In this document: piece by piece, positions 10,018-20,053 of the stretch
How the letters are laid out: each line of letters begins with the position of its first letter
How positions within the stretch are numbered: the stretch's first letter is position 1
Assembly (NCBI GenBank): GCA_021773835.1
Contig: JAJFJQ010000035.1
Location: forward strand, 183,213 to 247,212
Length of the DNA: 64,000 nt
Reading direction: 5' to 3'
From: Gammaproteobacteria bacterium
Lineage (GTDB): Bacteria > Pseudomonadota > Gammaproteobacteria > Ga0077536
Translations under genes and position numbers: made by a program
The notes under the pieces: model-generated
Told to the model about the DNA's origin: nothing
Databases searched by the model: none
Seen by the model: the letters and a program-made list of their open reading frames with translations, nothing else

Positions 10018-11736
10018 CTACAACGAACTGGGTAACAGCTTGCCTTGAATAAAGCCCAAACAATCCTCTATCGGGATATCATCGGAAGCGTCGTCCGTGC
10101 GCCCTTTATATTCGAGTGTGCCAGCGTCTAGCCCGCGGTCACTCAGTACCAGTCGATGCGGAATGCCGATCAATTCAAGGTTAGCGAACATCACCCCTGG
10201 CCGTTCTTTACCATCGCACAATAAGACGTCGATGCCGGCGGTCATGAAGCGTTCGTACAGCGATTCTGCCATCGCTTGTACACGCGACGATTTATGCGCG
10301 TTAACCGGCGCGATCGCGACGTGAAACGGCGCAATTGAGGTCGGCCAGATGATCCCGCTCTCGTCGTGATTTTGCTCGATCGCAGCCGCCACTATTCGTG
10401 ACACGCCGATCCCGTAGCACCCCATCGCTAGCGTCACCGCCTTACCATTCTCATCGAGCACGGTGGCTTTCATTGCCTCACTATATTTGGTCCCAAGCTG
10501 AAAAATATGGCCGACTTCTATACCGCGCTTGACCTCGAGCGCGCCCGCGCCATCCGGGCTCTCATCGCCGCTTACAACGTTACGAATGTCAACACTCTCC
10601 GGCTCTGGAAGGTCACGTGCCCAATTTACTCCGCGTAGGTGCTGGCCTTCTTGGTTCGCGCCGCACACGAAATCTGTCAGCGCGCACGCAGCGTGATCCA
10701 CGAAAATAGGTACTTCAAGTCCGACTGGGCCGAGCGAACCCGGGCTACAACCGACCGCGGCTTGTATCTTCTGTGCCTCGGCAAAACGGATCGGAGATGC
10801 GACCCCCGGTAGGTTTTGCGCCTTGATCACATTAAGCTCATGATCGCCGCGCAATACTAGAGCGACAATGCTGTCCTGTGCACCTTCAACCATCAAGGTC
10901 TTCACGCATTGCGCGGGGGTCGTACCGAGAAAGTCGCTAACCGCCTCTATGGTGTGCTGGTCAGGCGTGTCCACGCTTTCGCACGGGCTGTTGCCATCCG
11001 CACGTGACGCAGTGGGTTTTACCGTCGCCACCATTTCGACATTCGCGGCAAATCGCCCATCACTGCTAAACGCGATCTGATCTTCGCCTGAGTCTGCGAG
11101 CACATGAAATTCATGCGAGGTGGAGCCGCCGATGTTACCGGTATCGGCGATCACCGCGCGGTAGCTTAGGCCGATGCGATCGAAAATTCGGCTATAGCTT
11201 GCGTACATTTGATCGTAGGTTTCTTGCAGTGAGTCGTGGTCAAGATGAAAGGAATACGCATCCTTCATTAGAAACTCTCGCGCTCGCATAATGCCGTAGC
11301 GCGGCCGGATCTCGTCGCGGAATTTCGTTTGTATTTGGTAGAAATTGGCGGGTAGTTGTTTGTAGCTTCGAACTTCGCGGCGCACTAGATCGGTGATGAT
11401 CTCTTCGTGCGTCGGTCCCAAACAAAATTGTCGTTGGTGGCGATCTTCGAAGCGAAGTAGTTCCGGACCGTAGGCGTCCCAACGACCAGATTCATTCCAC
11501 AGCTCCGCCGGCTGCACGCTCGACATCAAGATCTCTTGGGCGCCGGCGCGGTTCATTTCATCGCGAACGATATTTTCGACCCGGCGAAGTACTTTCAACC
11601 CGAGCGGTAACCAGGTGTAGATGCCGGCGGCCAGTTGGCGTACTAAACCGGCCCGAATCATCAGTTGGTGGCTGACGATCTCGGTATCAGCGGGCGATTC
11701 CCGCAAGGTTGGTAGCAGCAGTTTGGACAGTCTCAT
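10018..11736 (-). CDS. proS: Proline--tRNA ligase (with INS editing domain)
   Basis: Motifs [41 protein letters not shown] and [10 protein letters not shown]. Confidence 0.98.
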
Positions 11737-11877
11737 GGGTCGCTAGATTCCTGATTGGTCGCCGTCGTTGATGGTGCTCGTCGTCATTTGGCGTCCCGCA
11801 CTGACGATCCGCCGGGGTTTCCGTTGTTCTCTGCGATTGGATACAGGCGGGATCCGTCGCTGAAAAGCAGCGTTCGC

Positions 11878-11906
11878 ATTCTCGGTAGATAGAATGGTTT
11901 GTGCAA
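11878..11906 (-). promoter_or_regulatory. Putative sigma70 promoter of proS
   Basis: Minus strand TTGCAC-N17-GAGAAT. Confidence 0.45.
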
Positions 11907-11939
11907 CTTGCTGTTGAAATGTACCCGTGCCGCCGTCGC

Positions 11940-11968
11940 TTGACCTCTTGTTTGAATCCCAGTAATTT
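11940..11968 (+). promoter_or_regulatory. Putative sigma70 promoter of the ilv operon
   Basis: TTGACC-N17-TAATTT, about 130 nt upstream of the ilvB start. Confidence 0.55.
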
Positions 11969-12100
11969 GCCCTGTTCTCTGCATCTTAAGCGCAAACGGA
12001 GCGTCCACGATGGCGACTCCGGGCCGCGATGTCTTACCGGGGCACCAAGTGCCGGGCGCCGGTGCATTCAGTAACAACCGATGAGTTAGGAAGAGTTAAC

Positions 12101-13822
12101 GTGAGCGAGAAATTGAGGGGCGCGGAAATATTCTGCCGTGCGCTGGCGGATGAAGGTGTGGATATTGTTTTCGGCTACCCCGGCGGGGCCGTGCTGCACA
12201 TCTACGACGAGGTGTTTAAGCAAGACAAATTCAAGCACGTTCTCGTACGCCATGAGCAAGGCGCAACGCACGCAGCAGACGGCTATGCGCGTGCCACCGG
12301 CAAGCCGGGCGTTGTACTCGTCACCTCTGGCCCGGGCGCAACCAACTGCGTAACGGGCATCGCGACGGCGTATATGGATTCGATCCCGCTAGTGGTATTC
12401 ACCGGCCAGGTTTCGACAGCGCTGATCGGCAACGACGCTTTTCAGGAAGTCGATTGCGTTGGTATTACCCGCCCTTGTGTTAAACATAATTTTCTCGTCG
12501 AGCGGGTGGAAGATCTCGCCATTACGATCAAGAAGGCATTTTATATCGCCAGTTCCGGTCGGCCGGGCCCGGTGGTCGTCGACATTCCTAAAGACGTGAC
12601 TGCAAACGTGACGGAATACCACTACCCGGAGTCCGTCGACGTACGCTCCTACAAGCCGACGACGAAGGGACATCCAGGCCAAATCAAAAAGGCGTTGCAA
12701 CTAATTTCGCAGGCCTCTAAGCCGATGATCTATACCGGGGGTGGTGTCATTCTCGATAATGCCTCGGAGCAGTTAACGGAATTTACCCGGATCCTGGGCT
12801 TTCCAATCACAAATACGTTGATGGGTCTCGGTGCATATCCTGGTACCGATCCCCAATTCATCGGCATGCTCGGTATGCATGGCACTTACGAAGCGAACAT
12901 GGCCATGCACGAGTGCGATCTACTTATCGCGATAGGCGCACGATTTGACGATCGTGTGACCGGCGATCTCGCGCAGTTTTGTCCAGAGGCGAAAATTATC
13001 CACATTGATATCGACCCGTCTTCGATTTCGAAAAATGTCCCGGTCGACGTGCCGATCGTCGGCGGCGTGAGCCATGTTCTCAGCGAAATGAATCGCTTGT
13101 TGCGAGAAGACGAAGTCAAACCGGTCGACCGCGCAAAAGATCATTGGTGGCAGCAAATCGTTACCTGGCAGGGACTTGATTGTTTGAAATTCGATGGCGA
13201 CAGCCCATTGATCAAACCACAGGCAGTGGTGGAATCACTCTACGATGTGACGAAAGGGGATGCCTTCATTACTTCTGATGTAGGCCAACACCAAATGTGG
13301 GCCGCACAGTACTATAAGTTTGACCAGCCGCGACGTTGGATTAACTCTGGGGGGCTTGGCACAATGGGATTTGGCTTGCCGGCAGCGATGGGTGTTCAAT
13401 TCGCCTATCCGGATAGTGCTGTGGCGTGCATCACTGGAGAGGCAAGCGTCGTTATGTGCATCCAGGAATTATCTACGTGCTTGCAGTACGATCTGCCAAT
13501 AAAAATGATCAGTCTCAATAATCGTTACATGGGCATGGTGCGCCAATGGCAGGAGTTTTTTTACGATAGCCGGTATTCACACTCCTATATGGATGCGCTT
13601 CCAGACTTTGTTAAGCTCGCAGAGAGCTTCGGTCACGTCGGCATGCGGATCGAAAATCCGAGTGACGTTGACGGTGCCTTGAGAGAGGCATTCGCCATGA
13701 AAAATCGGCTCGTGTTCATGGATTTCGTTACTGACCAAAGTGAAAACGTCTATCCCATGATTGCCGCCGGCAAGGGCCAACATGAAATGCATTTAGCCAG
13801 TGACGTTCGCGAACTTGCATGA
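12101..13822 (+). CDS. ilvB: Acetolactate synthase large subunit (ilvI/ilvB)
   Basis: Motifs FGYPGGAVL, RHEQGA.HAADGYAR and SGGLGTMGFG; GTG start at 12101 after an AGGAAGAG SD (track start 12029 is too early). Confidence 0.97.
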   Translation: MSEKLRGAEIFCRALADEGVDIVFGYPGGAVLHIYDEVFKQDKFKHVLVRHEQGATHAADGYARATGKPGVVLVTSGPGATNCVTGIATAYMDSIPLVVFTGQVSTALIGNDAFQEVDCVGITRPCVKHNFLVERVEDLAITIKKAFYIASSGRPGPVVVDIPKDVTANVTEYHYPESVDVRSYKPTTKGHPGQIKKALQLISQASKPMIYTGGGVILDNASEQLTEFTRILGFPITNTLMGLGAYPGTDPQFIGMLGMHGTYEANMAMHECDLLIAIGARFDDRVTGDLAQFCPEAKIIHIDIDPSSISKNVPVDVPIVGGVSHVLSEMNRLLREDEVKPVDRAKDHWWQQIVTWQGLDCLKFDGDSPLIKPQAVVESLYDVTKGDAFITSDVGQHQMWAAQYYKFDQPRRWINSGGLGTMGFGLPAAMGVQFAYPDSAVACITGEASVVMCIQELSTCLQYDLPIKMISLNNRYMGMVRQWQEFFYDSRYSHSYMDALPDFVKLAESFGHVGMRIENPSDVDGALREAFAMKNRLVFMDFVTDQSENVYPMIAAGKGQHEMHLASDVRELA

Positions 13823-14319
13823 GCGTGCGTCACACGATCTCGATTTTGCTTGAGAACGAAGCCGGTGCGCTATCGCGCGTGGCCGGACTGTTTTCCGCGC
13901 GGGCCTACAATATTGAGTCGCTTTCGGTTGCGCCAACCGAAGATCCAACGGTATCGCGGCTGACGCTTGTGACGAGCGGTTCACCTGAGATAATCGAGCA
14001 AATCACTAAACAGTTAAACAAGCTCGTCGATGTTATACGGTTGGTCGATTTGAACGAAAGTCGTGCTATTGAGCGCGAGCTTATGTTGATCAAACTCCGC
14101 GCGGCCGGGGGCGAGCAACGCGAAGAGATGAAGCGTCTCATCGACATTTTCGAGGGCAGTGTCGTTGACGTGACCGAATCCACCTATACGGTCGAGATCA
14201 TTGGCGACGGCGAGAAGCTCGATTCCTTCATAGAGGCAGTGAGTCCGAAACGAATATTGGAAGTTGTCCGCTCTGGCGTACTTGGGATCCTACGCGGAAC
14301 CAAGGCACTTCGTGCCTAG
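13819..14319 (+). CDS. ilvN: Acetolactate synthase small subunit (ilvH/ilvN)
   Basis: Motifs ENEAGALSRVAGLFSARAYNIESL and QITKQLNKLVDV. Confidence 0.97.
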   Translation: MSVRHTISILLENEAGALSRVAGLFSARAYNIESLSVAPTEDPTVSRLTLVTSGSPEIIEQITKQLNKLVDVIRLVDLNESRAIERELMLIKLRAAGGEQREEMKRLIDIFEGSVVDVTESTYTVEIIGDGEKLDSFIEAVSPKRILEVVRSGVLGILRGTKALRA

Positions 14320-14353
14320 CAGCGGTCTCGAATATTGTCACGACTGCGTCTAA

Positions 14354-15433
<1,080 letters not shown>

Positions 15434-15532
15434 CGTCCAGGTCAGAGAACGGCAGGCATCGAGTTTACCCGGGAGCGGCGGTGCCTGGTGTCGACGTGGC
15501 AACGGTAGGAAAATTCAGCGATGTGATGGGTC

Positions 15533-16237
15533 GTGCCGACTAAGCAATACGCACTTATCGCGCGCGAATCCCACCCCACACTGGCGTTTGTCGGTGTTTG
15601 CGCAATCGCCGTGCACGTCGTATTTGGCGGCTATTTTGCGAGCCCTTTATGGTTGTTGCTCGGCTGCCTGTTTTATTTATTTCGGGACCCCACACAATCG
15701 CCACCCTCTCTTCCGTTAGCGATCGTAAGCCCCATCTATGGTACCGTGACAGCGCACGGGAACGTGCACGATCCATGGCTTAAGCGTCGCGCAGAAGCCA
15801 TTGTCATTCGGACCGGCCCGTTTGATGTGCGCAGCATCTACGCGCCGATCGAGGGGAAAATCATCGAACAGTGGAGTCGGATACCGAACCCCCAACCCGA
15901 CGACGATAGCCCTGCTCATTCATGCGCCTATTGGATCAAGACGGACGAGGATGACGACGTCGTGTTGGTCATCACGCGAGCTTCATGGGGTGGCCCGATC
16001 AGCTTTGGCTACAATCCGGGGGAGCGCGTCGGTCAAGGTCGGCGCGTCGGATTCGCCAATTTTGGCTGCAATGCGCGTGTGTATTTGCCGGTCGGGAGTC
16101 ATATTGAGGTCGCCGACGGTGATCGCGTTGCCGCCGGTAGTAGCGTGGTCGCGATGTTGGTCCACTTGACCCGGATGGCGAATCCGTCGAACCGCGGAAC
16201 TGACACCCAAATGAACACGCCTGAGGAAAGTAGTTGA
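15533..16237 (+). CDS. Phosphatidylserine decarboxylase-like protein, catalytic residues substituted
   Basis: LFRDP, AP.EGK and G.RVG.G.RVG...FG....YLP fold motifs; lies between ilvC and pssA; has FGC instead of FGS. Confidence 0.8.
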   Translation: MPTKQYALIARESHPTLAFVGVCAIAVHVVFGGYFASPLWLLLGCLFYLFRDPTQSPPSLPLAIVSPIYGTVTAHGNVHDPWLKRRAEAIVIRTGPFDVRSIYAPIEGKIIEQWSRIPNPQPDDDSPAHSCAYWIKTDEDDDVVLVITRASWGGPISFGYNPGERVGQGRRVGFANFGCNARVYLPVGSHIEVADGDRVAAGSSVVAMLVHLTRMANPSNRGTDTQMNTPEESS

Positions 16238-16274
16238 ACCCCGGCTCGTTATTTCGACTACAGTTATAGGAGTC

Positions 16275-17087
16275 ATGGACAGCAAGCACCAGCCCGAGTC
16301 CCCACTGCGCGAAGTGGCGCCCCACGCCGAGGTCAAGCCGCGTCGTAAGGGTATCTATCTGCTACCGAATTTGCTTACGACGGGCTCTTTATTTGCGGGT
16401 TTTTACGCCATCGTGGCCGCAATCAATGGAAGTTACGAGAGTGCTGCAATTTCGATTTTCGTGGCCATGGTCCTCGATGGTATGGACGGCCGCATCGCTC
16501 GAATGACGAATACTCAGAGTGACTTCGGCGCTGAATATGACAGCCTGGCGGACATGGTTTCGTTTGGGCTCGCTCCAGCGCTGGTTGCCTATGAGTGGAT
16601 CCTGGCAGACTTAGGTAAAATCGGTTGGTTGGGCGCGTTCGTGTTTACGTCAACCGCGGCGTTGCGCCTAGCTCGTTTTAACACCCAAGCAAGCGTTACA
16701 GATAAGCGATATTTTCAAGGGCTACCAAGTCCGGCAGCCGCAGCGGTTGTTGCTGGCATTATTTGGTTCGTCGAAAGCTACTCGTTGAAATCGGATCTGC
16801 CTGCCACCTCTGTGGTGTTCGTAGTGACGATCGCGATGGCATTTTTGATGGTGAGTAATATCCGCTACCACAGCTTCAAGGAACTTGATCTACGTGGCAA
16901 GGTGCCATTCGTCGCCGTGCTCGCGATTGTGCTCGGGTTCGTGCTCATCTCTATCGATCCGGCCGCGGTTTTGGCGCTTAGCTTTGTAGGCTATGCGGCG
17001 TCGGGTCCGCTGATGACCTTGCTGCAAATCCGCCAACGCCGGCGTGAACGAAGACAAGCGGCGCAATCTGATCGCGATGCTGCTTGA
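16275..17087 (+). CDS. pssA: CDP-diacylglycerol--serine O-phosphatidyltransferase (CDP-alcohol phosphotransferase type)
   Basis: Motifs [19 protein letters not shown]...SDFG..YDSLAD.VSFG and RLARFN. Confidence 0.96.
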
Positions 17088-17158
17088 TCGTTCTACTAGG
17101 GGACCGGTCGGCACGGCCGTTGGGTACGGCGTCAAATGCCGCCGATCCGATTTCGTAG

Positions 17159-17863
17159 GTGCGTCCTTCTCCTCGCTCGATTGATTCGGCGATAAAACGG
17201 GAACTGATTGACTTGCAACACACCGACAGTCTCGCGGCAATGGATATTGACGTTTGGGTTCGACGCTCGGTCGACGACGGCCCCGATGCCCCGACACCGG
17301 TGATCGATCCAGCGAAACTCGCAGCAGAGGTCGCACGGTGTACCAGGTGTGACCTACATAGAGAGCGAACCCAAACCGTGTTTGGGATTGGCAATTTAAG
17401 CGCAGATCTCCTGATCATTGGTGAAGCGCCTGGGGCCGAGGAAGATCGCCTTGGTGAGCCCTTTGTTGGACGTGCAGGGAAGCTACTCAATTCTATGTTG
17501 CGTGCAATCGGTCTAACCCGCGAGCAGGTCTACATCGCGAACATATTGAAGTGTCGACCGCCGGGAAATCGGGACCCTAGTCCTGAGGAGGTTGCGAACT
17601 GCGCCTCCTACCTTGCCCGACAGGTGGATATCATACGACCCCGCATGATTCTTGCTGTGGGTCGCATTGCAGCGCAAAATCTACTGCACCGGACCACCCC
17701 AATCGGTAAAATGCGAGGGCAGCGGTATACTTACGGGGACCCGGAGATCCCGGTCATCGTGACCTACCATCCGGCCTATCTGCTGCGTTCGCCCCGGGAA
17801 AAGCGTAAGGCCTGGGCCGATTTGTTGCTGGTAAAAGAACTGATAGAGGAACCGATTTTGTGA
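17159..17863 (+). CDS. Uracil-DNA glycosylase family 4 (Fe-S); start may be about 50-80 nt downstream
   Basis: [33 protein letters not shown] and TYHPAYLLR. Confidence 0.93.
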
Positions 17864-18339
17864 GTGCGGTACTCAAAGACCCACGCGCTAGCCTGCGACC
17901 AATGCGTGAGCATGACATTACTCAGGTATTCGCCATCGAGCGACGATCGTACGACTTTCCCTGGTCTGTTGGCGTATTCACCGACTGCCTTCGAGTCGGC
18001 TATTGCTGCTGGACGATCGTCGAGGAAAACGACCTGGCCGGTTACGGCATCATGACGGTAGCGGCCCAGGAGTGTCACATTCTGAATATTTGCGTCGACC
18101 CCAACTACCGCCGGCGCAGTTACGCGACAGCCCTGTTGGAGCAGCTGCTTGAGTCGGCGGCAACCCATGGCGCTACCACGGCTTATCTAGAGGTACGGCC
18201 TTCGAACATCGCTGCCATAGACCTCTACCTCGGGGCGGGTTTTTCCCGTATCGGAGAGCGGCCGAATTATTACCCAGCGAGAGATGGTCGAGAAGACGCG
18301 CTAGTATTGAGCATACCGGTCTCACCCACAGAGCCCTAG
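17860..18339 (+). CDS. rimI: Ribosomal protein S18 alanine N-acetyltransferase
   Basis: Motifs HILNICVDP, LEVRPSN..A..LY and R.NYYP....REDA. Confidence 0.93.
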   Translation: MSAVLKDPRASLRPMREHDITQVFAIERRSYDFPWSVGVFTDCLRVGYCCWTIVEENDLAGYGIMTVAAQECHILNICVDPNYRRRSYATALLEQLLESAATHGATTAYLEVRPSNIAAIDLYLGAGFSRIGERPNYYPARDGREDALVLSIPVSPTEP

Positions 18340-18446
18340 CGCGCGTTTAAGGGATGCATCCTCGGCTTGAATGAGACTCACATAAGCGCTAGCCTACTGC
18401 ACAAAGCTTCACAACAAATCCTTCAACAAAACCGCTGGTACCTTCA

Positions 18447-19013
18447 ATGAATGTTCGATCGTCGTCTGGGTTTGCCATCGCTTGCCTTACCGCCGCGCTC
18501 ACGCTCGTGATTGGCGCAAAACCAGCGCAAGCTTTGGACAGCATTGCGCTCGATCTCGGGACCGCCGCTGGCGATGCGGATGTTGAGCGATACGGGATCG
18601 CACTTACATGGGATTGGAATGCCCAGTGGCTTGCCGAAGGAGATTGGTATCTTGGTGGATATTGGGAGCTGGGCGCGAGCTATTGGGACGGAGATGAAGG
18701 GCGCACGGGCAATGATTCGCTCGGCGATTTTCATGTCACCCCCGTGCTGCGGTACCAACGAAAAGAGGGCTTAGCATTTTCGCCATTTGTTGAATTCGGC
18801 CTTGGTGCGCACGTGCACACGGACGACTCGATCGGTAATAAGCGGTTCGACGTACCATTCGCGTTTGGCAGTCATCTTGGGGGCGGTTTCCGATTTGGCA
18901 CGCAGGCGCAATATGAATTGATCTATCGTTTTCAACATTTATCGAATGCCGGAATTGGCGACGATAATCCGGGGATCAATTTTCACGTCTTGAACCTCCG
19001 CTACCGTTTCTAG
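18447..19013 (+). CDS. pagL: PagL-family outer-membrane lipid A 3-O-deacylase / acyloxyacyl hydrolase
   Basis: Signal peptide, amphipathic beta strands, YRFQHLSNAGI..NPGIN catalytic His-Ser motif and C-terminal Phe. Confidence 0.85.
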   Translation: MNVRSSSGFAIACLTAALTLVIGAKPAQALDSIALDLGTAAGDADVERYGIALTWDWNAQWLAEGDWYLGGYWELGASYWDGDEGRTGNDSLGDFHVTPVLRYQRKEGLAFSPFVEFGLGAHVHTDDSIGNKRFDVPFAFGSHLGGGFRFGTQAQYELIYRFQHLSNAGIGDDNPGINFHVLNLRYRF

Positions 19014-19147
19014 TCGGCAGTTTTCAATTATCGAATAGCACCTTGCCTTCCCGTTGGCCGTTCAACGGACAATCGACAAAAATGCTGGCGCACGCGACCC
19101 ATGGCCGCCGCAGCCACGCTCCTAGCTGCAATTTAAGCCCCGCCGTC

Positions 19148-19156
19148 TGCTAATAT
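19148..19156 (+). promoter_or_regulatory. Extended -10 element for cysM (probable leaderless start)
   Basis: TGCTAATAT followed by 6 nt then ATG 19163; no SD. Confidence 0.5.
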
Positions 19157-19162
19157 TTAGTC

Positions 19163-20053
19163 ATGGATCACTCAACGATAGAAGATTTCGTCGGCAATAC
19201 GCCATTAGTGCGTTTGCAGCGCCTGCCGGGGGCAACGACGAATACCATCTTGGCGAAACTTGAGGGCAATAATCCTGCGGGTTCGGTAAAGGATCGGCCG
19301 GCTATGTACATGATCCGCGGCGCGGAGGAGCGAGGGGAAATTGCCGCAGGAGATACCTTGATTGAAGCGACCAGTGGCAATACTGGCATCGCCTTGGCAA
19401 TGGCGGCTGCGATCAAGGGCTATCGAATGATTTTAGTGATGCCGGAAAATATGAGTGCCGAGCGTCGAGCAGTGATGAAGGCGTTTGGGGCGGAAATCGT
19501 TCTAACTTCACAGGAAGGCTCCATGGAGGAGGCGATTGATACCGCACGCACTATGGAGACGAATGGCGAGGGGATCATATTGGATCAGTTTTCGAACCCC
19601 GATAATCCACAGGCCCACTATCAGGGCACGGGGCCGGAAATATGGCGTGAAACGAACGGCGGCGTAACACATTTCGTAAGCTCCATGGGCACTACTGGAA
19701 CGATCATGGGGACCTCGAAATACTTGAAAGAATGTAATCCCGATGTTCAAGTTGTCGGTGTGCAACCGAAAGATGGTGCCTCAATCCCGGGCATTCGTCG
19801 CTGGCCAGAAGCCTACCTACCGAAAATTTACGACCGACAGCGAATCGATACGATTATCGAGGTTAGCCAAGAGGATGCCGAGGCAACGACCGTAGCGCTC
19901 GGTAAACGCGAAGGAATTTTCGCCGGTATCTCTTCCGGTGGTGCTGTTGCCGCTGCCTTGCGTTTGAGTGAGACGATCGAAAATTCTGTGATCGTCGTTA
20001 TCATTTGCGATCGTGGCGATCGATATTTATCTACCAACGTTTTTCCCAGTTAG
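19163..20053 (+). CDS. cysM: Cysteine synthase B
   Basis: Motifs AKLEGNNPAGSVKDR, EATSGNTG, IPGIRRWP and CDRGDRYLST. Confidence 0.97.
   Translation: MDHSTIEDFVGNTPLVRLQRLPGATTNTILAKLEGNNPAGSVKDRPAMYMIRGAEERGEIAAGDTLIEATSGNTGIALAMAAAIKGYRMILVMPENMSAERRAVMKAFGAEIVLTSQEGSMEEAIDTARTMETNGEGIILDQFSNPDNPQAHYQGTGPEIWRETNGGVTHFVSSMGTTGTIMGTSKYLKECNPDVQVVGVQPKDGASIPGIRRWPEAYLPKIYDRQRIDTIIEVSQEDAEATTVALGKREGIFAGISSGGAVAAALRLSETIENSVIVVIICDRGDRYLSTNVFPS

Follow-up and report, generated by a model that had tools for sequence, protein, structure and literature searches.

A short-type phosphatidylserine decarboxylase homologue that has lost its catalytic residues is kept under selection next to pssA and probably has a new role in lipid synthesis

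Bacteria are usually said to make phosphatidylethanolamine with two enzymes, PssA and then Psd, and active Psd obtains its pyruvoyl group from an Asp-His-Ser-dependent self-cleavage at a Gly-Ser site. The locus described here raises the question of what a Psd homologue might be kept for when all three of these residues have been replaced. The window, by which we mean the whole stretch of 64,000 nucleotides of gammaproteobacterial DNA that was analyzed, contains such a gene, here called psdL (Table 1). An earlier note, made from the sequence alone, had described a full-length reading frame with an N-terminal anchor, placed 37 nt before pssA, in which Y69, R100, and C179 stand in place of Asp-His-Ser. 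The frame, of 234 aa, is present, and the spacing is as described (16237 is the last nucleotide of the stop codon, and 16275 the first of pssA). psdL begins with a GTG start codon and shares the N terminus MPTKxY with its orthologues. Its hairpin of two AlphaFold2-predicted helices, residues 11–31 and 33–49, is taken to be a membrane anchor from its hydrophobic sequence.

Table 1. Coordinates, within the window, of psdL, its neighbors, and the residues discussed in the text
Feature	Position	Strand	Description
ilvC	14411..15433	+	Pfam KARI_N, KARI_C; upstream neighbor of psdL
psdL	15533..16237	+	234-aa short-type phosphatidylserine decarboxylase homologue, catalytic apparatus lost
N-terminal helical hairpin, residues 11–49	15563..15679	+	AlphaFold2 helices 11–31, 33–49
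Tyr69 codon TAT	15737–15739	+	Aligned to the triad Asp of SPADG
Arg100-Ser-Ile-Tyr103	15830..15841	+	Active short Psds have His-x-Asn-Arg there
Glu107	15851..15853	+	Glu in 125/126 D-[YFLW]-x, 47/47 HRC, and 6/6 DHC sequences; variable in 16 active short Psds
D138-E139-D140-D141-D142 acidic motif	15944..15958	+	D138, E139, and D141 at >=97% in triad-less groups; variable in active short Psds
Gly178-Cys179	16064..16069	+	GGC TGC; aligned to the Gly-Ser self-cleavage site
His211	16163..16165	+	His in 98/126 D-[YFLW]-x and 46/47 HRC sequences
pssA	16275..17087	+	Type II (CDP-alcohol) phosphatidylserine synthase, housekeeping copy; TIGR00473 125.6 versus cut-off 107

At the level of codons, Arg100 (CGC, 15830–15832) stands for the triad His (E. 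coli His144), and codons 177–179 (TTT GGC TGC, 16061–16069) encode Phe-Gly-Cys179. A BLASTP comparison with a canonical short Psd (P0073) paired SPIYG with SPADG, FDVRSIYAP with FDVHVNRAP, and FGC with FGS, and the same residue equivalence held in MAFFT alignments of >200 homologues. Codon reading, BLASTP, MAFFT, and the structure match described below therefore all confirm the replacement of the triad that the earlier note had claimed. Further, Tyr103 stands where active and other triad-less members both conserve Arg. Profile searches placed psdL in the Psd domain family, with PF02666 matching residues 46–206 at 45.9 bits against a gathering cut-off of 22. The NCBIfam equivalog cut-off was missed: the best model, NF003680, reached 99.8 bits against a cut-off of 262, and all 11 Psd models with E <0.01 were far below threshold. 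No other enzyme family in Pfam or NCBIfam matched psdL by sequence, and a search of the ESM Atlas returned nothing beyond "Psd family protein" clusters. Members of the clade to which psdL belongs are labeled by NCBI either "hypothetical protein" or "phosphatidylserine decarboxylase."

The AlphaFold2 model of psdL (mean pLDDT 89.4) and its structure matches support membership in the Psd fold. VIA-align superimposed the model on E. coli Psd (6l06_A) with a Z score of 8.8 and an rmsd of 2.9 Å over 122 aligned residues. In this match, model residues 50–177 pair with residues 67–252 of the E. coli beta chain and the correspondence stops exactly at the cleavage boundary, thus placing Cys179 at Ser254. 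The related EIIA-Glc fold matched the model with a Z score of 13.7. Foldseek likewise ranked EIIA-Glc and M23 domains highest, and the Psd match surfaced only with VIA-align. A sequence profile of the psdL family run against the PDB gave only a weak biotin-carrier match and did not retrieve E. coli Psd.

Comparison with known systems indicates what has been kept and what has been lost. psdL resembles the short-type Psds (the PRK05305 group, NF003680) in fold, length, and N-terminal helical hairpin, in its place in the ilvC-psd-pssA slot, in the motifs FRDP, SPxxG, and PxxG, and in the Gly before the cleavage position. It differs from them in having Tyr (or, in relatives, His), Arg, and Cys for Asp, His, and Ser and in the loss of ∼30 other positions. 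E. coli Psd uses D90/D142-H144-S254, of which H144 is indispensable for both cleavage and decarboxylation (PMC7952604); D90, H144, and S254 of that enzyme (PDB 6L06, 7CNW–7CNZ) correspond to Tyr, Arg, and Cys in psdL. Both H144A and H144N abolish decarboxylation by E. coli Psd (PMC7952604), and the window protein has Arg there.

The earlier note had also raised the matter of a second, E. coli-type psd, and an intact copy was found on another contig of the same genome. This long Psd (296 aa, L001:1471–2358, minus strand) passes TIGR00163 with a score of 216.9 against a cut-off of 111.75 and carries the motifs CPADG, YHRVH, and MGST. At the position of E. coli Asp142 the same protein (genome G000, contig C59) has Asn, within HNYHRVH; in E. 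coli, Asp142 is reported as the back-up of Asp90 during self-cleavage. We then compared 61 genomes, from 18 genera, of the window's GTDB family. psdL was present in 22 of the 61 genomes and in 8 of the 18 genera, with the remaining 39 genomes giving no psdL match, and a strong long Psd was nearly universal in the sample. All but one of the 22 carriers (21 genomes) had the long Psd as well, and the one that gave none is a 93%-complete assembly of 350 contigs. Genomes of the family with D/N-H-C forms of psdL also had the long Psd (three of three), and the long Psd was intact in every checked carrier of the Cys types.

To set these observations in a wider frame, we turned to 401 genomes sampled from the class, with Psd domains tallied over 400 of them (the tally takes in one unpublished genome, G099, which is a non-carrier and on which no claim depends). 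A short Psd-family member was found in 111 of the 401 genomes and some Psd domain in 381 of the 400. Leaving out the window genome, the 110 class carriers were split by comparing the two tallies side by side: 94 had a strong long Psd, 11 had a single mid-scoring Psd hit, and 5 had no strong Psd. A prediction set beforehand was that carriers whose short copy is the sole Psd should hold genuine enzymes. As expected, all 11 read D-H-S with IRFGSRVD, these genomes falling in ∼7 families and so not all being independent, whereas D-H-S was found in none of the 29 checked carriers that have a long Psd. Across the 45 carriers checked overall the rule holds cleanly: an intact triad is confined to genomes that have no Psd besides the short copy. 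Because the triad is intact only in such sole-Psd carriers, loss of function elsewhere is a well-founded reading, and for psdL itself the sequence and co-occurrence data together argue strongly that Psd chemistry has been lost. D-H-C forms were not present in the class sample.

The 5 class carriers without a strong Psd count against the reading favored below, and two of them are 97–98% complete. These two genomes carry D-F-R forms of psdL (G202:C5:5857–6462, L078; and G388:C28:7745–8356, L079) and gave no PF02666 match at all, and a second genome of the family of G202 likewise had no PF02666 match. A recognizable Psd may be absent from these lineages.

An exhaustive search of representative sequences returned 965 clusters at E <=1e-3, of which 321 lay at E <=1e-10, and revealed that psdL is one member of a large triad-less family. 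Asp-His-Ser was found in just 5 of ∼210 full-length sequences, the commonest triad states being H-R-C (38), D-Y-A (20), D-F-G (11), D-Y-S (10), and D-Y-G (10). In most triad-less short Psds beside pssA the triad positions are D-[Tyr/Phe]-[Ala/Gly/Ser] and the RSP motif retains its Arg, whereas the window's clade reads His/Tyr-Arg-Cys and has Tyr in place of that Arg; put differently, Tyr-x-x-Arg in most triad-less members becomes Arg-x-x-Tyr in the window's clade. In its position by pssA, its co-occurrence with the long Psd, and its gained residues, the clade is like the other triad-less members.

To define these lost and gained residues, 16 active short Psds were compared with 126 D-[YFLW]-x, 6 D-H-C, and 47 H/Y-R-C sequences. 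Approximately 30 positions that the active enzymes conserve have been lost from each of the three other groups (D-[YFLW]-x, DHC, and HRC). The lost positions include H100 and S179 as well as R180, N128, E129, N131, Q147, A149, G150, R154, and R155; the latter nine are all replaced, and are variable, in the window's clade. Conversely, at six positions that vary among the active enzymes the triad-less groups hardly vary at all, and the window protein has all six of the residues concerned, E107, D138, E139, D141, R165, and H211 (see Table 1 for frequencies). At the His211 position, His is not among the three commonest states of active short Psds. The gained residues are shared across >100 other triad-less lineages.

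The His/Tyr-Arg-Cys state itself is common to 47 sequences and is therefore not a chance feature of the window. Of 35 non-redundant clade members, 33 carry His at position 69 and 2 carry Tyr, so that Tyr69 of the window protein is the minority state, and P57, H69, W82, Y103, Q113, R170, A181, L212, and T213 are conserved specifically in the clade. At position 179, the 47 HRC sequences comprise 41 with Cys, 5 with Ser, and 1 with Gly. Adding the DHC group, in which all six have Cys, brings Cys179 to 47 of 53. In the other triad-less lineages, this position drifts: of 126 sequences, 37 have Ala, 27 have Gly, 21 have Ser, and the remainder have other residues, a contrast that indicates that Cys in particular is preferred. 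The family tree nests the H-R-C clade (49 rows) in a well-supported clade of 61 rows whose basal members are D-H-C. Forms that read D-H-C or N-H-C are also found in a second genus of this GTDB family, at the same locus and alongside a long Psd. The Ser-to-Cys change therefore came before the changes of Asp and His.

The strong preference for Cys179 hints at a specific role for the thiol, which a pseudoenzyme reading leaves unexplained. One alternative is that psdL is a self-processing enzyme based on Cys: Cys179 would attack the Gly178 carbonyl, the thioester would eliminate to an N-terminal pyruvoyl group, and the protein would decarboxylate phosphatidylserine or some other lipid with an amino-acid head group, while Arg100 would hold the carboxylate. 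A Gly-Cys pair lies exactly at the cleavage site, the Cys frequencies given above have persisted across divergences saturated at synonymous sites, and the sole replacements seen are Ser and Gly. Moreover, Cys does give rise to a pyruvoyl group in two reductases, PrdA and GrdE, the only proteins in which Cys-derived pyruvoyl groups are known (PMC11229817). These share with psdL a Cys where the chain would be cut, which is a resemblance only, because they are unrelated reductases, not decarboxylases, and PrdA requires the helper PrdH and PrdB for its maturation (PMC11229817). Against such chemistry, all pyruvoyl decarboxylases use Ser (PMC11229817), psdL has Arg in place of the His that is essential to decarboxylation by E. 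coli Psd (PMC7952604), and the ∼30 further positions of active Psds are gone. In addition, when the 168 core positions are ordered by how well the clade conserves them, the three triad sites come no higher than 48th, 60th, and 62nd, variants with Gly179, Leu100, or Tyr69 exist, and an intact long Psd accompanies every checked Cys-type carrier. Overall, we consider a Cys-based enzyme unlikely. It is also quite improbable, in our estimate, that the lineage leading from D-H-C to H-R-C represents a natural Cys-type Psd, the first in its family, acting by thioester self-processing or directly through the thiol on a lipid other than bulk phosphatidylserine; were this so, the preference for Cys179 would mark a live active site and not a fossil.

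A further possibility is that psdL acts as the trypanosomatid AdoMetDC prozyme does, pairing with the long Psd and controlling its maturation or activity. The precedent is close in one respect, as the prozyme is a dead paralogue of a pyruvoyl decarboxylase, serves as an activator, and is selected alongside the active enzyme (PMC5201418). It differs in having an unrelated fold, and it is known to heterodimerize with, and activate, its partner (PMC5201418). Triad-less psdL occurs almost only where a long Psd is present, and the asymmetric unit of E. coli Psd crystals contains two or four alpha-beta heterodimers, which is compatible with pairing of Psd-fold proteins (PMC7952604). However, the short and long types are so distant that the psdL-family profile misses E. 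coli Psd in the PDB, the two genes are unlinked and lie on different contigs, and most relatives use the long Psd without psdL. We therefore give an activator of this kind a low probability.

psdL might also be a new enzyme on the old fold, in which E107, D138, E139, D141, and H211, joined in the clade by His69 and Cys179, would form a putative metal or catalytic site for another reaction on lipid head groups. Near-invariance of these residues in triad-less members, and their variability in active short Psds, favor such a site, and zinc-dependent M23/LytM peptidases share the fold of the psdL model (Z ∼8). Nonetheless, the Pfam and NCBIfam searches matched psdL to no other enzyme family, and the same fold superfamily also holds the non-catalytic LytM regulators. 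A low probability is likewise what we assign to this reading.

We next considered how psdL has been maintained. Synonymous sites were saturated in most within-genus pairs, so that dN/dS (NG86) rests on the two unsaturated same-genus pairs, in which psdL gave 0.089 and 0.076, ilvC 0.021 and 0.013, and pssA 0.031 and 0.076. The dN/dS comparison proposed in the earlier note thus gives 0.08–0.09 for psdL, which reflects purifying selection and not neutral decay. All eight genomes sampled from the genus have an intact psdL frame, as do 21 of the 22 carriers of the family (the remaining one has a single in-frame TGA), and 38 core positions are invariant across the clade. Within the genus, identity was 62–68% for psdL, 77–83% for PssA, and 90–93% for IlvC. 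Many psdL matches elsewhere (G004:C31:127159–127839 and several class loci) showed one in-frame stop within the matched span; mostly, the match probably overruns the true end of the gene, and some could be broken copies.

In the 10 non-carrier genomes of the GTDB family that were examined, ilvC adjoins pssA directly, and a proxy tree built from IlvC and PssA requires at least four changes of psdL presence or absence. Because relatives in which ilvC adjoins pssA have lost psdL cleanly several times, the gene is dispensable and its role is non-essential. That psdL is a decaying relic, redundant, without function, and drifting to loss, is most improbable: its faster evolution relative to ilvC and pssA and its repeated loss in relatives would fit, but purifying selection together with intact frames excludes neutral decay, and the clade-invariant positions and the new constraints common to >100 lineages argue likewise against it. 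Given the dN/dS values and the intact frames, we rejected a pseudogene reading.

The surroundings of psdL are conserved. ilvB, ilvN, and ilvC lie upstream, type II pssA orthologues occur in 58 of the 61 genomes of the GTDB family, and the order ilvC-psdL-pssA held, down to 32% identity, in every locus long enough to show both neighbors. A short-type psd originally sat between ilvC and pssA, and psdL inherited its slot from this psd-pssA arrangement. Because the adjacency is ancestral, it is not independent evidence of a partnership with PssA or of a functional link. A complex prediction for psdL and PssA, both entered as alignments, scored 0.00 against a mark of 0.32, which weighs neither way. 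Our search found no psdL fusions (such as psdL-PssA) or other longer forms, which is weak evidence. A promoter and terminator scan of 11500–19200 gave sites no more numerous than in shuffled sequence. The public runs listed as containing 14400–17100 are biofilm metagenome assemblies, with no RNA run among them. Neither PrdA/GrdE-type families nor a PrdH-like maturation factor came up among the Pfam matches of psdL and its seven neighboring products or among the NCBIfam matches of psdL and PssA.

Downstream of pssA lie a gene of the UDG superfamily (17159–17863), a GNAT acetyltransferase gene that overlaps it by 4 nt (17860–18339), and, after these, a gene for the lipid A 3-O-deacylase PagL (18447–19013). 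The order UDG-GNAT-PagL also follows pssA in metagenome contigs with D-H-C forms of psdL. One such contig (L066:6848–8386) has a leuA-like gene (HMGL-like, LeuA_dimer) between pssA and the UDG gene, which is missing from that place in the window.

With somewhat better than even confidence, we favor the view that psdL is a neofunctionalized, non-pyruvoyl pseudo-Psd that is accessory to the PssA-to-Psd step. psdL is kept under selection next to pssA despite its lost catalytic residues, and it therefore probably has a new role in lipid synthesis. The stability of the locus, and an old pocket that is remodeled and not erased, are the reasons for which we favor an accessory role; a tie to PssA or to phosphatidylserine is the weaker part of this proposal. 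In the sequence of events that we envisage, a short-type psd between ilvC and pssA would have lost Asp-His-Ser and the ∼30 other positions to become psdL, with phosphatidylethanolamine presumably made by type II PssA and the separate intact long Psd of the same genome. psdL would no longer self-cleave or decarboxylate phosphatidylserine. Instead, it may be a membrane-anchored accessory protein of the PssA-to-Psd step, whose remodeled pocket would bind phosphatidylserine or another anionic head group, or which would contact PssA, or both. In this manner psdL might tune or organize the synthesis and hand-off of phosphatidylserine without catalysis.

The earlier note had offered two readings, a pseudoenzyme or a rare Cys-based variant. 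The former is strengthened by the replaced triad, the ∼30 lost positions, the intact second Psd, and the purifying selection, and the latter is weakened by Arg at the needed His and by the Ser and Gly that replace Cys in some members. New here are the H/Y-R-C clade with its Cys, the descent of this clade from D-H-C forms, the test tying triad integrity to sole-Psd status, and the lists of lost and gained positions. Our literature search found no description of a dead or pseudo-Psd, of S254C, or of psd, pssA, and ilvC together.

The Cys-bearing clade is the best place to ask whether any chemistry survives. More broadly, the pssA locus of 111 of the 401 class genomes holds a conserved third protein in addition to the two enzymes PssA and Psd, a Psd descendant that is putatively membrane-anchored and predicted not to be a Psd. 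Should psdL regulate PssA, bind phosphatidylserine, or aid the active Psd, then a core membrane pathway would have been described without one of its components, and psdL would be a bacterial example of a pyruvoyl-enzyme pseudo-paralogue.
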